Shown here piece by piece: positions 7,117 through 25,940 of a stretch of DNA of 26,175 bases (the first letter of the stretch is position 1; every line of letters begins with the position of its first letter). The notes beneath the pieces are model-generated. The model was given only the letters and a program-made list of their open reading frames with translations. It did not search any database and was not told the origin of the DNA. The stretch comes from an uncultured virus (IMG/VR IMGVR_UViG_3300030331_001986) (taxonomy: Duplodnaviria > Heunggongvirae > Uroviricota > Caudoviricetes). The stretch lies in IMG/VR virus record IMGVR_UViG_3300030331_001986; one strand, written 5' to 3'. A program made the position numbers and the translations under genes.

Positions 7117-8367
7117 TCATTTAATATTATATTGTTTCTTTAATATACTTTTCCATAATTCTCCACTAAACTTAGACTTAGCACGTTCAAGTAAGAAACT
7201 TTTGTTATTTTTACCAGTTTTAACTGCTAATTCTAATAAAAAGTCTAAAATTTCTCCAACTTTTCTTCCACTCAGTCCCTTATCTAAAAGGTCTTGCCCA
7301 GAGATAGCCAATTCTTTCAAATTTGTCGGTTTTCCTTCACTTTTCATTGATTTTAGTTGTTCACTTAGAGTTTTTTGATTTTTGGCTTTCTGTAACGCAT
7401 CAATATTACGAATAATATCATTTTTATCAGTCATTTTAGATAAAAATTTAACAATATTAAGGTCATTTATATCTAGTTTTTGAAAATCCATAACTGCTTT
7501 AACTATTTTAGCATCTTTATTAGATAATTTCATTAAATCTTGTAACTTCTCACTACTTGAATCTTCGCCAAATAACGCCAAAAACGCTGGAAAAGCATTT
7601 TTATCCAATTTATCCATTAAAGGATTAACTTTTCCATTACTAAGTATATGTTTCATCAATCCAGTCTCGACTAAAAGTTTAACTCCTATGGTGGGCTTCA
7701 GGGATTTTTCGAACATTTTTCGAAATTCTTCTTGGAATCGTTCATTAGAAACAGTTTTAATTTTTTGAGCATTTTTCTTTATTTCTTTCATTGTTTCTTC
7801 TTCTATTTTAAACTCAAATCTAGCCGCAAATTGAACAGCCCTTAACATCCTTAATGGGTCATCTTCAAACGCTTTTGGATTAATTACAGAAATTTGTTTG
7901 TTTTTTATATCAAGTTGACCTCTACCTTCAATATCTACTAGTTCTCCAGTTTCAATATCCTTAGCAATTGCATTCATCCAAAAATCTCTACGCAATTGTT
8001 CTTCTTCTAAAGTAATATCTTTACCCAACTTAACTTCAAAATCCTTGTGACCCTCCCCAGTGCTTACTTCTATTCTAGGAACAACAATATCTACAGGCTC
8101 TCCTTTCTCACCAGTAGGATTAAATTTTAACACTCCAAAACTTTTACCAACTAAATTGACTTTACCATGTTTACTCAACAATTCTTGTAAATCCTCTATA
8201 TCTATACCAGTAATTATCAAATCTAAATCTTTTGACACTTTACCTAGAAACTCATCTCTAACTGCTCCACCAATTTGATATATTTTACCGCCCATAGATT
8301 TTACATCTTGACGCAACTCACTAGTGATTATATCTAATGAAGCCTTTAAAATTTGCATCCATCCCAC
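7117..8367 (-). CDS. cca: Class II tRNA nucleotidyltransferase (CCA-adding / poly(A) polymerase family), no HD domain
   Basis: Motifs GGAVRD, KDLD, LRRDFWMNAIA, DDPLRMLRAVQFAARF, VSNERFQEEF and C-terminal LAISGQDL..G..VGEIL. Probable GTG start at 8367 after GGTGA (MGWMQILK). Confidence 0.9.
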   Translation of the reverse strand: MGWMQILKASLDIITSELRQDVKSMGGKIYQIGGAVRDEFLGKVSKDLDLIITGIDIEDLQELLSKHGKVNLVGKSFGVLKFNPTGEKGEPVDIVVPRIEVSTGEGHKDFEVKLGKDITLEEEQLRRDFWMNAIAKDIETGELVDIEGRGQLDIKNKQISVINPKAFEDDPLRMLRAVQFAARFEFKIEEETMKEIKKNAQKIKTVSNERFQEEFRKMFEKSLKPTIGVKLLVETGLMKHILSNGKVNPLMDKLDKNAFPAFLALFGEDSSSEKLQDLMKLSNKDAKIVKAVMDFQKLDINDLNIVKFLSKMTDKNDIIRNIDALQKAKNQKTLSEQLKSMKSEGKPTNLKELAISGQDLLDKGLSGRKVGEILDFLLELAVKTGKNNKSFLLERAKSKFSGELWKSILKKQYNIK

Positions 8368-8371
8368 AATA

Positions 8372-8725
8372 TCACCTATTAGGAACTTCTTCCACAACTC
8401 CACTTAACTTACCACTGTATTTTTTAAAATCCTTAATCTGATTCGAATGAAATGGTTTACCACCATCAGGGCTAGTTGCAATCGTTACATGAGCAAACTT
8501 ATCATCATCTCTCTCAGCATCTACTTTAACAGCCATTGCCCTATCATCAATACCAATAGCAGTAATATTCATTGAAACTTTATCTCCCACCTTATATTTT
8601 GAATCTCGCAACGGTCCAAGTTTAATTGTCATATGATGAGCAATAGGTTTCCATCCTTTGGGAACTAACTCTAACAATTTATTTCTGGATTCCTCATCAA
8701 GAACAACAGCAGAATAACTAATACT
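8372..8725 (-). CDS. 2H phosphoesterase, tRNA-ligase-type 2',3'-cyclic phosphodiesterase-like; 5' end lost in the gap
   Basis: Two HxT motifs (HHMTI, HVTIA). The frame extends upstream of the ORF-track start to the gap as SISYSAVVLDEESRNKLLELVPKGW. Confidence 0.75.
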   Translation of the reverse strand, partial: SISYSAVVLDEESRNKLLELVPKGWKPIAHHMTIKLGPLRDSKYKVGDKVSMNITAIGIDDRAMAVKVDAERDDDKFAHVTIATSPDGGKPFHSNQIKDFKKYSGKLSGVVEEVPNR

Positions 8726-8735
8726 NNNNNNNNNN
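8726..8735. other. Assembly gap (10 N)
   Basis: N run; the reading frame shifts across it, so the true length is probably not 10. Confidence 1.
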
Positions 8736-9237
8736 ATTCTAACTCCTGTCCTCTATATGCAGAGTTATCTTCTAATGTTGTATTCCATCCTCGGTTTCTC
8801 TTAACTGCTTCACTAACAGGTTCTCCCCAAATATTTACAAAATCTTTCAATGGAAAACTTCTGTCTTCATTTTTTCCTAAATAAGTATTGAAGGTAACTC
8901 GACTACCTTTTCGAGAAAAAGAAATCATTTCTATATTCTTTGTATCGGGAAATCTCCAAATCCATCCTTCGGATTTATTCTTAGTCATAATTTTATCAGC
9001 AAGGTTTTCTATTTCATCTCTAGGGGATTTACCTCTTTCTGGACTTCTATTAGTAACTGCCCATAAATAATGAGGTCTAGCAAAAATAGTTCCATCTTCA
9101 TTTATAGCACCAGTAAACCTACCCCAAACTTCTCCTTCAACCTTTACTTCTTTAAACGTTTTATCACTAGTTTCTTGATAAGCAATACCTACATAATCTT
9201 TTGGAGGCAACAATTTAAGAATATCTTTCCAACTCAC
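8736..9237 (-). CDS. Hypothetical protein starting MSWKDILK, interrupted by the gap; may be fused to the 2H domain
   Basis: GTG start overlaps the stop of the HMG-CoA lyase gene, with AGGTGG SD; open up to the gap. Confidence 0.7.
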
Positions 9238-15141: not shown

Positions 15142-15162
15142 ACCTATGGTAAGCAAGATTAG

Positions 15163-15207
15163 TTAAGGTCCTCCTTAACAAAGTAACTCGTACCATATGG
15201 TTGTTAC
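15163..15207 (-). promoter_or_regulatory. Palindromic element copy 10 plus minus-strand ACCTTAA box
   Basis: TTAAGGT 15163-15169; CAAAG 15179; core 15192-15201; GTAAC/GTTAC arms. Confidence 0.75.
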
Positions 15208-15439
15208 GCAGTTAAACTTGAATGGATTTTTCATTAAAGTTGTAAATTTGCAAAATCCGACCATGCGCCACCTTTATAAATAATTTAACATCCCGTAGGT
15301 AGACAAAAGAAATGATTATCCATTACAGTATATCTCACATGGAGAGTGACCTCTTTTATCTAAGTAAAACCTAACACTAATATAATTACTACCACCCAAA
15401 ATGGTAATAGTTATACCTACCTAAATAGTTAGCCATTTT

Positions 15440-15812
15440 ACTATATTAAATTCAATTGGTTATATATTATATAATATATTATATTAATATAAATATTAGT
15501 ACCTAGTATAAAATATTCATAAGATTCGTATTATTCTCAATTATTCTCAATGCATTTGAGAATTATCATTGCGATTCTGAGTCATATAGTATGATTTTTT
15601 TATTATTCTCATTATTATTATTATTATTATATATTTATTATTATTATATTACATACTATACTTCTATTACACTGTATATATAGAGTGAGAAGTGAGAATA
15701 ATGATAATAATGAGAATAAGTGAGAAACATTTGATTGTGTTGAAATTTCCAACATAATTGGTGAAAAAATTTGAGAAAGATGTGAGAAACATCTGAGAAT
15801 AATAAATTATAT
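15440..15812. repeat. AT-rich region with TGAGAA iterons; candidate replication origin
   Basis: TTCTCA at 15534, 15544 and 15606. TGAGAA at 15557, 15686, 15693, 15711, 15721, 15772, 15783 and 15794. A (TTA)n tract at about 15611-15650. Confidence 0.55.
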
Positions 15813-15860
15813 TTCAATAAGGTTTGCAAAGTAATAAAGGGAGAACATCTCCTTTCAAGC

Positions 15861-15960
15861 AGAGAACTAATCCGTAGAAATGTCGTAAAGGTGAGAGTCT
15901 TTATTGTAAATGCGGTATGATGAGTTGGCGACATTACAGAATTCATGACATTGGTTCTTT
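15861..15960 (+). ncRNA. Structured RNA motif, copy A
   Basis: Outer stem AGAGAACTAAT/ATTGGTTCTTT, inner stem AATGTCG/CGACATT, hairpin TAAAG/CTTTA; three sequence blocks identical to copy B. Confidence 0.7.
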
Positions 15961-16038
15961 CCCTTTTTCCTTATTGATTTTATATTCAAGGGTTCTAGTA
16001 TATCTATTAATGTTGCAAGATAGATTACTAGGTAATTA

Positions 16039-16132
16039 GGTATCACCCGTAGAAATGTCTTGAGGTCCAGTAACCCTCACCTAATTGCGGTATGATGTGT
16101 TTGAGGCATTACAGAATTCATGTTGTGATACC
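16039..16132 (+). ncRNA. Structured RNA motif, copy B
   Basis: Outer stem GGTATCAC/GTGATACC, inner stem AATGTCTT/GAGGCATT, hairpin TGAGG/CCTCA; three sequence blocks identical to copy A. Confidence 0.7.
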
Positions 16133-16171
16133 ACCCCAACTTTATTAACTATCAATTATTAGTGATTAAAG

Positions 16172-16350
16172 TCCACACTGGATTTCACAAAGGAGTGTGG
16201 GGAGAGTGTGGATAGGCTTCCTTATATGCCTTGATTTACTCCCCACATTCCGCTTATACTCCTTAATTTACAGGGGAGGTAGGGTAGTAGATTAAGGTGC
16301 TCCGTTAAGACTAACACCATGAGATGTTATGTCGTCATCCCTACCTTCCC
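16172..16350 (+). ncRNA. Candidate structured RNA: H-type pseudoknot plus a long-stem domain
   Basis: Stems 16172-16179/16205-16212 and 16192-16204/16239-16251 cross each other; 12-bp stem at 16273-16284/16339-16350. Confidence 0.5.
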
Positions 16351-16367
16351 ACTTACAGGTGATTAAC

Positions 16368-16631
16368 ATGAAAGAAACGCAAGATAAAATTAGAAAAACA
16401 ATGAAAGAAGTATTAGACTTACTTATCGCTAAAAACAAACAATATGGCGATTCAGCGCTAAACCCAACTGGTATATTTGCTAAGGGTTCAGCAGAGGATT
16501 TAATCCGAATAAGAATTGATGATAAGTTGAATAGGTTGTTACAAGGTGACGATTCTATAGAAAGTGATGAGGATGTTATATTAGATTTAATAGGCTATTT
16601 AGTATTATTACTGATAGCAATTAGAGGTTAA
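16368..16631 (+). CDS. DUF1599-like / nucleotide-modification-associated domain 1 protein
   Basis: KNKQYGDS, IRIDDKLNRL, EDVILDLIGY. Start moved to ATG 16368 after AGGTGA. Confidence 0.75.
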   Translation: MKETQDKIRKTMKEVLDLLIAKNKQYGDSALNPTGIFAKGSAEDLIRIRIDDKLNRLLQGDDSIESDEDVILDLIGYLVLLLIAIRG

Positions 16632-16648
16632 AATAAGTTATGCCACCA

Positions 16649-16732
16649 CTTATCTATAGAACGAGTAACGGAAAAGGATTGAAAGGCGTTAAAACTGAGT
16701 AATGAATAGCAGTAAAACATTCTATAGATAAG
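16649..16732. ncRNA. Candidate three-way-junction RNA closed by a perfect 13-bp stem
   Basis: CTTATCTATAGAA/TTCTATAGATAAG enclosing the stems TAACG/CGTTA and ACTG/CAGT. Confidence 0.4.
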
Positions 16733-16850
16733 GTACAAAACTATTGTTTAGGAATAGATAATCTTGATTGCACCTAAAACCTTTTGGTTGACCAATTGGA
16801 CCTCTGCATGAAAGGGCGGTATTAACTTCTATAGAAAAAGGTGAGACAAA

Positions 16851-17492
16851 ATGAATATATTTGCACTATCGAAAAATCCAGTAAAAGCGGCTAAAGAAAT
16901 GTTAGATAAACATGTGGTTAAAATGCCAACAGAGACTTGTCAGATGTTACACACAAATGCGTTGTTTAACGAGTATGTAGATAAGTTTGGCGAAGAACCA
17001 TCACTGAGACAATTAAAACAATATCACACAGATACGGAATCTATACTGATGAAACCAGCAATGCTTAATCATCCTAGCACTATATGGGCTAGAGAAAGTA
17101 GACATAATACTGAGTGGTTATTTAGACATGGTTTAGCATTATGTAGAGAATTCTTTTTTAGATATGAGAAAGTTCATGGTAGCGAGAAAAGAATAGAAGA
17201 TATATCTAAGTTAGTAAATGGTAACATACTACATGCAACTCCAGTTAATATAGCAATGCTAGATAAATACAGAATACCTAATAACTATGGTAATCACTGT
17301 TGGGAATATGTTATAGACTCCTATCGGCATTACTATTTAGAAGGTAAATGGGAGTTCGCAGAATGGAGAAAAAACAGAATGCCTGAATGGTGGCCTAAAG
17401 GACATAAGTTCCATAAACTAATAGAAAGACAAAACAAATTACATTTAGAAAATGAAAGATTAAAACAAATACAAAAGGAGAAATTGAAATGA
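16851..17492 (+). CDS. Pyrimidine-dimer DNA glycosylase (T4 DenV-related) family protein
   Basis: MNIF.L...P..AA....DKHVVKM..E..QML.T, NHPSTIWARES, YRHYY...K..FA.W...R.P.W; GGTGA SD. Confidence 0.75.
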   Translation: MNIFALSKNPVKAAKEMLDKHVVKMPTETCQMLHTNALFNEYVDKFGEEPSLRQLKQYHTDTESILMKPAMLNHPSTIWARESRHNTEWLFRHGLALCREFFFRYEKVHGSEKRIEDISKLVNGNILHATPVNIAMLDKYRIPNNYGNHCWEYVIDSYRHYYLEGKWEFAEWRKNRMPEWWPKGHKFHKLIERQNKLHLENERLKQIQKEKLK

Positions 17493-17985: not shown

Positions 17986-18128
17986 TGGCTAAATATATAC
18001 TAACAGATTGGAAAGGATGTGATGAAGATGATGAACCCCATGTTCATATTTTCAGAAATAAAGATGCATTAATTCAAAAGTTATTAGGATACTTAGATGA
18101 TGATATTAGATTAGAGGTGATTAAGTAA
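17985..18128 (+). CDS. 47-aa peptide MAKYILTDWKGCDEDDEPHVHIFRNKDALIQKLLGYLDDDIRLEVIK
   Basis: Not in the ORF track; TAATG-coupled at both ends. Confidence 0.65.
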   Translation: MAKYILTDWKGCDEDDEPHVHIFRNKDALIQKLLGYLDDDIRLEVIK

Positions 18129-18556
18129 TGGGTAAAAATAGACATGCTTATACTGATGCAAGAGGTGATTTAATATATTATTCTAGTAAAGAGGGAAAGA
18201 CAGGTTCGGGTTCTAAATACTGTAAACAAATAGCAAAGACCCTTCCTAAAAAAGATAAAAGATTTACTANNNNNNNNNNGGGCAAATACTCTTGGAACGA
18301 ACCACATAAATTTAGAGTAGTTGAAATGGATTTACAAGCAAGTAGTTCCTTCAAAAGTGGTTTCCATTTTAGGATATGGTTAAAATGCGACAAATGTGGA
18401 TTAGAAGTAACTGGCGATATACCAACTGATAAATTCTTTTTACATAGAGGTAAAGATTACGAAGGTGACTTTGTAATAAAGGATGGTTCTTGGTCAGAAG
18501 ATGGTGGATTAACTTGGGAAGTGGATGATACACCCCATGAAATGAGAGGCGAGTAA
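18128..18556 (+). CDS. Hypothetical protein with a CxxC motif, spanning the gap at 18270-18279
   Basis: GAGGTGA SD; CDKCG; the frame is open on both sides of the gap. Confidence 0.6.
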   Translation: MGKNRHAYTDARGDLIYYSSKEGKTGSGSKYCKQIAKTLPKKDKRFTXXXXGKYSWNEPHKFRVVEMDLQASSSFKSGFHFRIWLKCDKCGLEVTGDIPTDKFFLHRGKDYEGDFVIKDGSWSEDGGLTWEVDDTPHEMRGE

Positions 18557-24606: not shown

Positions 24607-24893
24607 AAGAAGTAGAATATGAAATTTTAAAATATATAATGTTTAACGAATACGGAAACTTTCAAGGGTTAACTGATTTATTCAAAAGTTTAGGCGCTGT
24701 CTGTAGCGATAAAGGTCATTTACTAAAACCTGAAAATAATAAAGTAAAAGATAAAGCATTACAAAAGAGAATTATTACTGCTAGAAAAGCAGTACAGAAT
24801 GTTTTAGGTAATATGATTGATAGTAGAATTAAATATTTAACAGAGGAACATGTAGATTATGGAATAGAAAATTATAAAGAAATAGGTGGATAA
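24585..24893 (+). CDS. Hypothetical protein, 102 aa
   Basis: GAGGG SD; overlaps both neighbours. Confidence 0.75.
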   Translation: MARPRSIKEVEYEILKYIMFNEYGNFQGLTDLFKSLGAVCSDKGHLLKPENNKVKDKALQKRIITARKAVQNVLGNMIDSRIKYLTEEHVDYGIENYKEIGG

Positions 24894-25458
24894 AATGAAA
24901 AGGAAAATAATGATAATAGGAACGGGAGGAATTGGAAGTTTTCTAATCCCTCTTTTAGACAAAACAGGACTGTATAAGATAACGGCTTTCGACCCCGATA
25001 TTGTCGAAACTAAGAACTTAACTTATCAGAATTATGAACAAGACGAAGTAGAAGATAAGAAAGTTTATGCTATGAAAAACCGCTACAAATCAGTAGTTAA
25101 AGCAGAACCATATTTAGTGCTAACACAAAGACAAATTGATGGATATGATTTAGTAATTTGTTGTGCAGATAACTTAGATGTAAGAAGGTTACTTTATAGG
25201 TCATCAGTGCAATGGTTAGATTTGAGGGCTCAAGCAAGGAATGGCGCTTTGATTAGTTATAAGACACCAAAGAATATGTTTGATACAGTATTAACAGGAC
25301 CAGATGGAAGTTTTTCATGTCAAGGAGATAGTTGGGAAGGTAAGAAAGAAGGGATACATTTTACTCATGTAGCAATAGCAGGTATGGCCGCAGAATGGAT
25401 GCAAAGATGGTTTGTAGATAATGATGATGTTTGTGATTATAAGGTTGTGAATATATGA
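24886..25458 (+). CDS. ThiF/MoeB/E1-family adenylating enzyme
   Basis: IIGTGGIGS, FDPDIVETKNLTYQNY, DLVICCADNLDVRR; candidate catalytic Cys in GSFSCQ; no Zn CxxC pairs. Confidence 0.9.
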   Translation: MDKMKRKIMIIGTGGIGSFLIPLLDKTGLYKITAFDPDIVETKNLTYQNYEQDEVEDKKVYAMKNRYKSVVKAEPYLVLTQRQIDGYDLVICCADNLDVRRLLYRSSVQWLDLRAQARNGALISYKTPKNMFDTVLTGPDGSFSCQGDSWEGKKEGIHFTHVAIAGMAAEWMQRWFVDNDDVCDYKVVNI

Positions 25459-25940
25459 TAATATTAAATGGAAATTGGAAAGAAGAAATCATTAAAGCGT
25501 TTGAAGATGGTGAGGCTTTAAGAAGTATATTTCAAAAACCAAAAGGTACAGAAGTTTACAGGAGACACTTTTTTCTTGAAAAAATATGGGAAATGAGTAT
25601 GGAAGCATTCGATACCCCAAGAGAAGTTCAAGTTGTAATAGATTCGAATAATAGATTGTTCATTAGTTTTGGAACTTTCTCTTTCGTGGAATTCAGTGAA
25701 GACCCAGTAGGAATGAAGTTACCAGTTAAGTGTTGGATTCATACTCATCCTTTTGGCAAGGCGTACTTTAGTGGGACGGATATGAGAACAATTAATACAT
25801 GGAAAACTAGAATGCTTAGTGCTATTGTATTAGGAGATAATGAACATCAAACTTGGTTTAAGAATGTAGATTATATGGAACATCATAGTTACCAAAAAAC
25901 CGAGTATATAGAATTTAAAGAATTAAAGGAGGAAGAATAA
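25455..25940 (+). CDS. JAB/MPN+ (JAMM) metallopeptidase
   Basis: Upstream Glu (PREVQ) and WIHTHPFGKAYFSGTD, matching HxH-x7-S-x2-D. Confidence 0.9.
   Translation: MIILNGNWKEEIIKAFEDGEALRSIFQKPKGTEVYRRHFFLEKIWEMSMEAFDTPREVQVVIDSNNRLFISFGTFSFVEFSEDPVGMKLPVKCWIHTHPFGKAYFSGTDMRTINTWKTRMLSAIVLGDNEHQTWFKNVDYMEHHSYQKTEYIEFKELKEEE

Follow-up and report, generated by a model that had tools for sequence, protein, structure and literature searches.

Here we describe a structured RNA motif of about 96 nt (range ~85-125 nt) that is carried once or twice per genome by uncultured viruses of the ocean. As judged from sequence comparison, it is a genuine RNA domain, read from the plus strand and without an earlier description, and by every test applied it represents a new RNA family with a fold supported by covariation. 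The window, that is, the whole stretch of 26,175 nt analysed here, is virus-like, with a G+C content of ~33% and two diverging gene blocks. Between these blocks lie ~1.2 kb without a credible gene, the last minus-strand gene ending at 15156 and the first plus-strand ATG standing at 16368, and both copies of the motif are found inside this gap. Their parts are as follows:

15861-15960, plus strand: motif copy 1, from the sequence and the covariance model (100.8 bits)
15861-71 AGAGAACTAAT with 15950-60 ATTGGTTCTTT, plus strand: closing stem P1 of copy 1, read from the sequence
15872-75 (CCGU) with 15912-15 (GCGG), plus strand: pseudoknot helix PK1 of copy 1
15879-86 AATGTCGT with 15928-35 GCGACATT, plus strand: inner stem P2 of copy 1
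15886-15903, plus strand: optional hairpin P3 of copy 1
15916-20 (UAUGA) with 15943-47 (UCAUG), plus strand: candidate pseudoknot helix PK2 of copy 1
16039-16132, plus strand: motif copy 2, from the sequence and the covariance model (95 bits)
16039-46 GGTATCAC with 16125-32 GTGATACC, plus strand: closing stem P1 of copy 2, read from the sequence
16047-50 with 16087-90, plus strand: PK1 of copy 2
16054-61 AATGTCTT with 16103-10 GAGGCATT, plus strand: P2 of copy 2
16061-79, plus strand: P3 of copy 2
16091-95 with 16118-22, plus strand: candidate PK2 of copy 2

An earlier note on this DNA had reported three identical blocks repeated at an offset of 175 nt, and the repeat finder recovered them, with 15872-15884 equal to 16047-16059 at 13 of 13 positions and 88% identity over 41 nt between 15907-15947 and 16082-16122. 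The outer and inner stems that had been read by eye are all found in the sequence of both copies, as are the two versions of hairpin P3 (TAAAG/CTTTA and TGAGG/CCTCA). A covariance model from relatives also finds both copies (E ~1e-28 and ~1e-26); since they score 100.8 and 95 bits against only 10.4 bits for the next best site in the 26-kb window, chance is excluded. The two copies share their core but not the sequences of P1, P2 and P3, and each type is found again in relatives; the duplication appears to be old and maintained.

The plus-strand reading, which rested on G-U pairs, was confirmed in an alignment of 52 sequences, in which 98.9% of the cells are paired on the plus strand against 86.5% on the minus strand, and 167 of 1348 pair cells are G-U pairs that would become A-C mismatches on the minus strand. 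Minimum free energies of single sequences were no better than those of shuffles on either strand (z of -0.51 and -0.97). Because the folding energies are unremarkable, the support for an RNA fold comes from covariation.

The same gap holds other unusual sequences. Some 250 nt of non-coding DNA at 15270-15530 are almost 100% identical in four relatives that are otherwise 82-93% identical. At 15293-15330, CCGTAGGTAGACAAAAGAAATGATTATCCATTACAG echoes the 5' and 3' blocks of the motif around a short AAUG/CAUU hairpin, without the GCGGUAUGAUG block; this could represent a third copy, minimal or decayed, or else a different RNA, and the region was found solely in the same three viral contigs. The A+T-rich stretch at 15500-15810 contains numerous copies of ATTATTCTCA/TGAGAATAAT, direct as well as inverted, that flank a tract of pure A/T and, from its sequence, looks like a replication origin, with iterons around an unwinding element; in the relative L004 other A+T-rich repeats stand in its place.

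Homologues were gathered by exact-pattern scans of viral contigs, metagenome contigs and one genome per species, each scan leaving one or more conserved blocks free, and the covariance model then picked 62 matches in 55 sources, 58 of them distinct. About 45 core positions hardly ever change, an invariance partly imposed by the searches, which required exact matches to parts of the core; every conserved block nevertheless returned unchanged when left free in at least one scan. Two matches were not counted as members, L086 (21.8 bits) being coding sequence and L090 (23.8 bits) being without CCGUAG and GCGG. L024, L026 and L079 were left out as chance pattern matches, and so were L044, L062, L069 and L073, for which the covariance model gave no match.

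The covariation seen between the two window copies extends to this set. Standard pairs fill 98.6% of the 1504 pair cells in the alignment of the 58 homologues, a share that falls to 24-49% when the partners are slid by one to three columns, and the covariation score was reached by none of 500 shuffles. Both sides vary at all eight pairs of P1 and at three of the eight pairs of P2; moreover, in L058:556-639 P2 is shorter by one base pair, deleted on both sides (AAGUCG/CGACUU). The P3 hairpin is present in 32 of 37 sequences and absent in five, and on this alignment it is a real but dispensable hairpin.

In the fold that these comparisons indicate, P1 closes the domain and P2 lies inside it; the CCGU that flanks P2 on the 5' side pairs with GCGG in the P2 loop to form PK1, and the UCAU on its 3' flank can pair with the adjacent AUGA, forming PK2. 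The earlier note had drawn PK1 with five pairs. The first four (CCGU/GCGG) stood, with covariation, but the fifth, A-U, did not, being unpaired in 10 of the 58 homologues. Pair 3 is G-C in 39 of the 58, C-G in 19 and unpaired in none, and pair 4 is U-G in 56, C-G in one and U-A in one. PK1 was invariant among the first 38 sequences, and freeing its positions brought in a second clade, with CCCU...GGGG. Since the swap from G-C to C-G was probably a single evolutionary event, the support for PK1 is good, not overwhelming. PK2 ((U)AUGA/UCAU(G)) fits the data and is invariant apart from a change of U-G to U-A in four sequences; because it otherwise never varies, the double-pseudoknot core is only half supported. 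An alternative 3-bp helix given by RNAalifold, G15-R16-A17 with U89-U90-C91, is as compatible as PK2, and A/G variation at position 16 also fits it.

Known RNA families do not account for the motif. The scan for which the earlier note had called gave no match at the gathering threshold over the whole window (Rfam 15, 4227 models), and at E<=10 there was nothing on the motif in 15400-16500; the sole match at that level, SAM-SAH with 12.3 bits (gathering threshold 40), falls outside the motif, on the minus strand (16298-16329). Eight homologous loci (13,043 nt) gave no match at E<=1. The failure to recognise a self-cleaving ribozyme by eye was repeated with the Rfam models, none of the hammerhead, twister, twister-sister, pistol, hatchet, HDV or hairpin models giving a match on the motif; the same is true of the glmS, xrRNA, GOLLD, ROOL, pRNA and Y RNA models and of all riboswitch classes.

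Several identities were also compared by eye. The hammerhead consensus places invariant boxes, CUGAUGA and GAAA, in a set order about a junction of three stems; in the motif, AUGAUGN has A and not C as its first base, its last base varies (A/U/C) and the order of stems is wrong. Positions required to be invariant in the hairpin ribozyme vary. K-turns have tandem sheared G-A pairs beside a 3-nt bulge, and one can be drawn here from P2, a bulge ACA and G86-A87 against G15-A16. However, position 16 is G in five of 52 sequences where A is required, and the upper stem, P3, is missing in five of 37. Box C/D RNAs have a C box (RUGAUGA) and a D box (CUGA), and the motif has no CUGA box. For H/ACA RNAs, with their ACA box and pseudouridylation pocket, for bulge-helix-bulge structures and for tRNA mimicry, either the order of helices does not fit or positions that ought to be invariant vary. 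A tRNA or tRNA-like structure was rejected as well: ARAGORN found no tRNA gene in the window, P1 bears two arms, not three, and there is no T-loop.

In the window lineage, the motif copies are embedded in additional structure:

15814..15977, plus strand: extended domain around copy 1, made up of P0, the motif and, at about 15837-55, a small hairpin on the 5' side
15814-22 UCAAUAAGG with 15969-77 CCUUAUUGA, plus strand: outer helix P0, from minimum-energy folds of relatives
15819-40, plus strand: invariant stretch AAGGTTTGCAAAGTAATAAAGG, inside the extended domain of copy 1
15995..16031, plus strand: spacer hairpin between the copies, CUAGUAUAUCUAU ... AUAGAUUACUAG, read by eye in the alignment and flanks
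16170..16355, plus strand: G+C-rich leader structure that follows copy 2 and precedes the first gene, from inverted repeats
16192-16204/16239-16251 and 16273-16284/16339-16350, plus strand: leader hairpins of 13 and 12 bp
16368..16631, plus strand: first downstream gene, 87 aa, phrog_1485, with AGGTGA upstream of its ATG

In 10 of the 11 relatives folded, the minimum-energy structure contains P0, whose sequence is changed in L064 and L078. A further helix, AAGGAUA/UAUCCUU, is found in L058, L075, L064 and L078, and P0 and this helix stack on P1, so that the P1 of copy-1-type members is enclosed by 9-16 bp more of stem. The earlier description of copy 1 was thus right in its contents but not in its boundary, since P0 encloses the copy. 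In these folding models the closure of copy-1-type members would be stable rather than switchable. The invariant stretch AAGGTTTGCAAAGTAATAAAGG occurs once per locus, always just upstream of a copy-1-type motif. A promoter reading of AAGGTTTGCAAAGTAATAAAGGGAGA (T7-like or archaeal BRE/TATA) was rejected: this element occurs once per locus and, because it lies inside the outer helix P0, it is taken to be transcribed as part of the RNA.

Pairing in the spacer hairpin is kept in L017 and L058, where by eye UCGGG/CCCGA replaces AUCUAU/AUAGAU. The hairpins of 16170-16355, which precede the ribosome-binding site in an A+T-rich genome, have conserved stems and variable loops in four relatives, and this leader structure has no Rfam match. 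The protein encoded at 16368..16631 gave no match in Pfam, NCBIfam or PDB.

Three of the viruses carrying the motif are complete, as linear contigs of 92-96 kb (G001-G003). They have a family-B DNA polymerase split into two genes, and around the motif they encode an ATP-dependent ligase, an RFC-like clamp-loader ATPase, an ERCC4 nuclease and a PD-(D/E)XK nuclease. Among archaeal viruses, a split polymerase is described as so far unique to group B magroviruses; magroviruses were assigned by their authors to Marine Group II Euryarchaeota, and in the same account both the viruses and these hosts are abundant in the surface ocean (PMC5434244). Our sequence comparisons suggest that the carriers are magrovirus-like viruses and their kin, probably viruses of marine archaea. 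The archaeal host is what we infer, and a counterpoint to it is the CCA-adding enzyme of the window, which belongs to the bacterial/eukaryotic class.

A close relative of the window, G004 (43 kb, 47% complete), is 92-94% identical to it over most of the window length. Ten of the 41 window ORFs of at least 70 aa match G001, at 23-62% identity, and structural genes are common to G004 and G001; on this evidence the window lineage is kin of the 92-96 kb viruses. The core blocks of the RNA are identical between the window and G001 lineages despite this protein identity of 23-62%, which suggests that the primary sequence of the RNA is under far stronger constraint than the surrounding proteins, with the caution that the core blocks were partly selected by exact-match searches.

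Some other features of these genomes deserve mention. A possible RNA-repair module, as read from the sequence, occupies 7117-9237 of the window:

7117-8403, minus strand: class II CCA-adding enzyme
8372-8677, minus strand: 101-aa protein with the cyclic-phosphodiesterase domain of fungal tRNA ligase (tRNA_lig_CPD, E 1.5e-6)
8671-9237, minus strand: 188-aa protein

At 24886-25940, genes for a ThiF-like E1 and a JAB-like protein adjoin, a ubiquitin-like modifier pair; both proteins have homologues in G001, with 60% and 49% identity. A short masked run (N) at ~18265-18280 falls within the ORF 18128-18556 and is translated as XXXX.

A pattern scan of one genome each of 185,579 species gave a single true match in cellular genomes, on a 22-kb virus-like contig (L093) binned into the MAG of a 'Euryarchaeota archaeon' (G005). 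Within the order of G005 the motif is in one of 151 genomes, G005 itself, on that contig alone. Because this sole match is on a virus-like contig, we regard the motif as virus-borne. The contig also carries a ThiF gene and, ~1.1 kb from the motif, a tRNA-Leu (GAG) gene (L093:8927-9010); tRNA-Leu and tRNA-Arg genes are among those reported in group B magroviruses (PMC5434244).

Isolate phages gave no DNA match to the region or the motif beyond a 29-nt chance match in Agrobacterium phage Atu_ph07, and no protein match for two window proteins. In the literature, the motif strings turn up solely as cloning primers. No paper among the best 12 matches listed joins magroviruses with riboswitches, ribozymes or structured RNA, and magrovirus together with 'secondary structure' leads to two papers, which by title and abstract deal with polymerases and with virus taxonomy.

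The motif is always on the sense strand of the flanking genes, in an mRNA leader or in intergenic non-coding RNA. The 92-96 kb viruses and similar fragments have one copy, on the sense strand, which begins 8-16 nt past the TGA of a ~400-aa gene ending in ...DFDWF (11 of 13 loci in the first set and 13 of 13 in the second clade) and lies ~85 nt ahead of the next start codon. About 10 nt after the motif comes a conserved H-type pseudoknot, followed by the hairpin AUAGG-UGCGAAG-CCUAU and then by a small gene with its Shine-Dalgarno sequence. The pseudoknot consists of CAAGU/ACUUG crossing AGUNU/ANNCU (L001:1587-1678 and 12 other loci), and its second helix covaries by eye (AGUAU/AUACU, AGUGU/ACACU, AAUGU/ACAUU, AGUUU/AGACU); neither it nor the hairpin has an Rfam match. 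The ~400-aa protein (L091:11325-12533) belongs to no family, with weak OB-fold/SSB-like leads for its C-terminal third (Atlas, TM <0.5).

In the window the motif forms the leader of the rightward gene block, and the window lineage has one or two copies in the long leader of this other operon, some relatives with copy 1 alone. In L093 the motif is between a 79-aa gene and a DUF3846 gene. The genes that follow are, according to lineage, the phrog_1485 protein, proteins of 74-88 aa or the DUF3846 protein. Neighbouring genes are thus unrelated between lineages, and the motif appears to be mobile between operons. No RNA run was listed with the locus among 24 runs, and 15150-16900 matched no contig from three metatranscriptome runs of samples that contain the DNA, a result that is neutral either way.

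We tentatively favour a reading of the motif as a cis-acting knot directed at host machinery in motion on the viral transcript. The knot would act on the very transcript that contains it: a rigid, sequence-specific structure would be recognised by, or would block, a conserved host machine travelling along the RNA, for which a 5'-to-3' exoribonuclease (as for flavivirus xrRNAs), RNA polymerase (as for put) and the ribosome are candidates. The knot would thereby determine how stable the downstream part of the operon is, or to what extent it is read through, whatever gene comes next, and the two copies in the window leader would provide redundancy or a stronger effect. Strong constraint, mobility between operons, restriction to viruses and duplication make a conserved macromolecule a better-fitting target than a metabolite to be sensed.

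A new class of self-cleaving ribozyme that processes viral polycistronic transcripts is possible though doubtful, and nearly as likely as the cis-acting knot. The cut would fall between the ~400-aa gene and the downstream genes, or would trim the leader in the window lineage, and the intergenic position suits such a role. Small self-cleaving ribozymes combine invariant unpaired bases and a pseudoknot core with an optional hairpin and a variable closing stem, and the motif resembles them in its size, its double-pseudoknot core, its many invariant unpaired bases, the optional P3 and the variable P1, as well as in its virus-only spread, its varied gene contexts and its possible tandem copies. The window also encodes a 2H/cyclic-phosphodiesterase-like protein and a CCA-adding enzyme, which could heal 2',3'-cyclic phosphate ends, but the CCA enzyme (PF01743) is found in none of the three complete 92-96 kb motif-bearing viruses, so that the repair genes are not linked to the motif. 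Moreover, no ribozyme model of Rfam 15 matched at E<=10, and the resemblances to hammerhead and hairpin ribozymes fail by eye.

We consider it rather unlikely that the motif is a riboswitch aptamer, paired in tandem in the window, whose sensing of a small molecule would control the downstream genes. Its anatomy is aptamer-like, with a variable P1 closing a highly conserved core and an optional hairpin, its copies are in sense-strand 5' leaders or intergenic regions, and tandem aptamers such as the window copies would form are described for other riboswitch classes (PMC9481103). These features have to be set against downstream genes that are unrelated between lineages and against the cellular genomes searched, where no copy was found except on the one virus-like contig. 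In copy-1-type members P1 is locked inside the further 9-16 bp contributed by P0 and the additional helix, and this long closing stem weighs against a riboswitch working by P1 opening. By eye, no lineage-wide alternative pairing with a terminator or a ribosome-binding site was found, and in the 92-96 kb viruses the ribosome-binding site is set apart from the motif by a distinct pseudoknot and a hairpin.

A small RNA that stands alone or is processed and acts in trans seems unlikely; it might, for instance, sequester an RNA-binding protein or nuclease of host or virus as a decoy or sponge. The P0 helix around copy 1 looks like a processing stem, a sequence-reading protein would find a suitable target in the invariant core, and two copies would give a double dose. 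However, in the 92-96 kb viruses there is no flanking stem and the motif sits tightly between two genes of one operon, no protein gene near the motif co-occurs in both lineages, and the K-turn, C/D-box and H/ACA readings fail by eye. That the motif does something else altogether we hold to be quite improbable.

Very improbable and largely refuted are a DNA-level element by a replication origin, despite the A+T-rich stretch with inverted TGAGAATAAT repeats, origin-like, beside the window motif and the replication gene block around it in the other lineage, as the G-U covariation confined to one strand and the covarying pseudoknot point to RNA and the 92-96 kb viruses have no flanking A+T-rich repeats, and a short peptide gene (MMxxRHYRIH) in the frame starting ATGATG in both window copies, as P1 covaries outside the peptide frame, a one-base deletion in L058:556-639 breaks it and residues change (S/C, W/L, R/Q).

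Taking the cis-acting knot and the ribozyme together, the motif may define a new catalytic or machine-hijacking RNA class of marine archaeal viruses that processes or protects polycistronic mRNAs, a view that we hold as not far short of probable. Archaea have so far yielded very few structured RNAs with regulatory or catalytic roles, and Marine Group II archaea have yet to be cultured. To our knowledge, no structured RNA is known from archaeal viruses, nor any element analogous to a machine-directed cis-acting RNA knot. If this view is correct, the motif would represent a new self-cleaving ribozyme or else the first xrRNA-like or put-like knot of an archaeal virus, blocking an exonuclease or a polymerase. 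With ~45 near-invariant positions, a covarying pseudoknot, identity across lineages whose proteins share 23-62% and moves between operons, these 96 nt make a well-defined and easily synthesised candidate for a new ribozyme, aptamer or nuclease-resistant fold. The motif can also serve as a sequence marker for this virus group in metagenomes.

Several known systems resemble the motif in part. The 92-96 kb viruses recall the dicistrovirus intergenic-region IRES in having ~190 nt between two co-directional genes with three consecutive pseudoknotted helices, formed by the motif and the H-type pseudoknot downstream of it; the sequences are not similar, the host domain is another one, and the genes downstream of the motif have ordinary Shine-Dalgarno sequences and start codons. 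Riboswitches built on a three-way junction (purine, THF-I, glutamine-I) come to mind when PK1 and PK2 are taken as arms, which gives a three-way junction with linkers of 0-2 nt whose two loops are connected through the 8-bp P2; a variable P1 and, in one lineage, a tandem arrangement add to the likeness. Unlike them, the motif has no Rfam match, no consistent regulated gene and no copies in the searched cellular genomes, and its P1 is locked by extra stems in one lineage.

Twister ribozymes share with the motif a closing P1, two pseudoknots made of the most conserved bases, optional stems, size and occurrence in phage-like DNA. The twister model gave no match at E<=10, however, and the A/U-rich core of the motif (CCGUAGAAAUG, GCGGUAUGAUG, CAUUACAGAAUUCAUG) is unlike the twister consensus. 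Flavivirus xrRNAs are likewise compact, virus-only, non-coding elements of ~70-100 nt, with a helix junction, two pseudoknots and a conserved core, and often form a tandem pair of diverged copies. They are located in 3' UTRs, whereas the motif belongs to a DNA virus and lies in its 5' leaders or between genes; there is no sequence or model match (Rfam), and the order of helices along the strand differs. The resemblance to xrRNAs is topological alone, in the junction, the two pseudoknots and the tandem copies. The put sites of phage HK022 are two simple stem-loops without pseudoknots, and the host of the motif is probably archaeal. Nevertheless, put and the nut sites of lambda are, as the motif would be, cis-acting RNAs of operon leaders, present in two copies per genome and indifferent to the gene downstream, and by this analogy the motif, too, would be conserved through the binding of a host machine.
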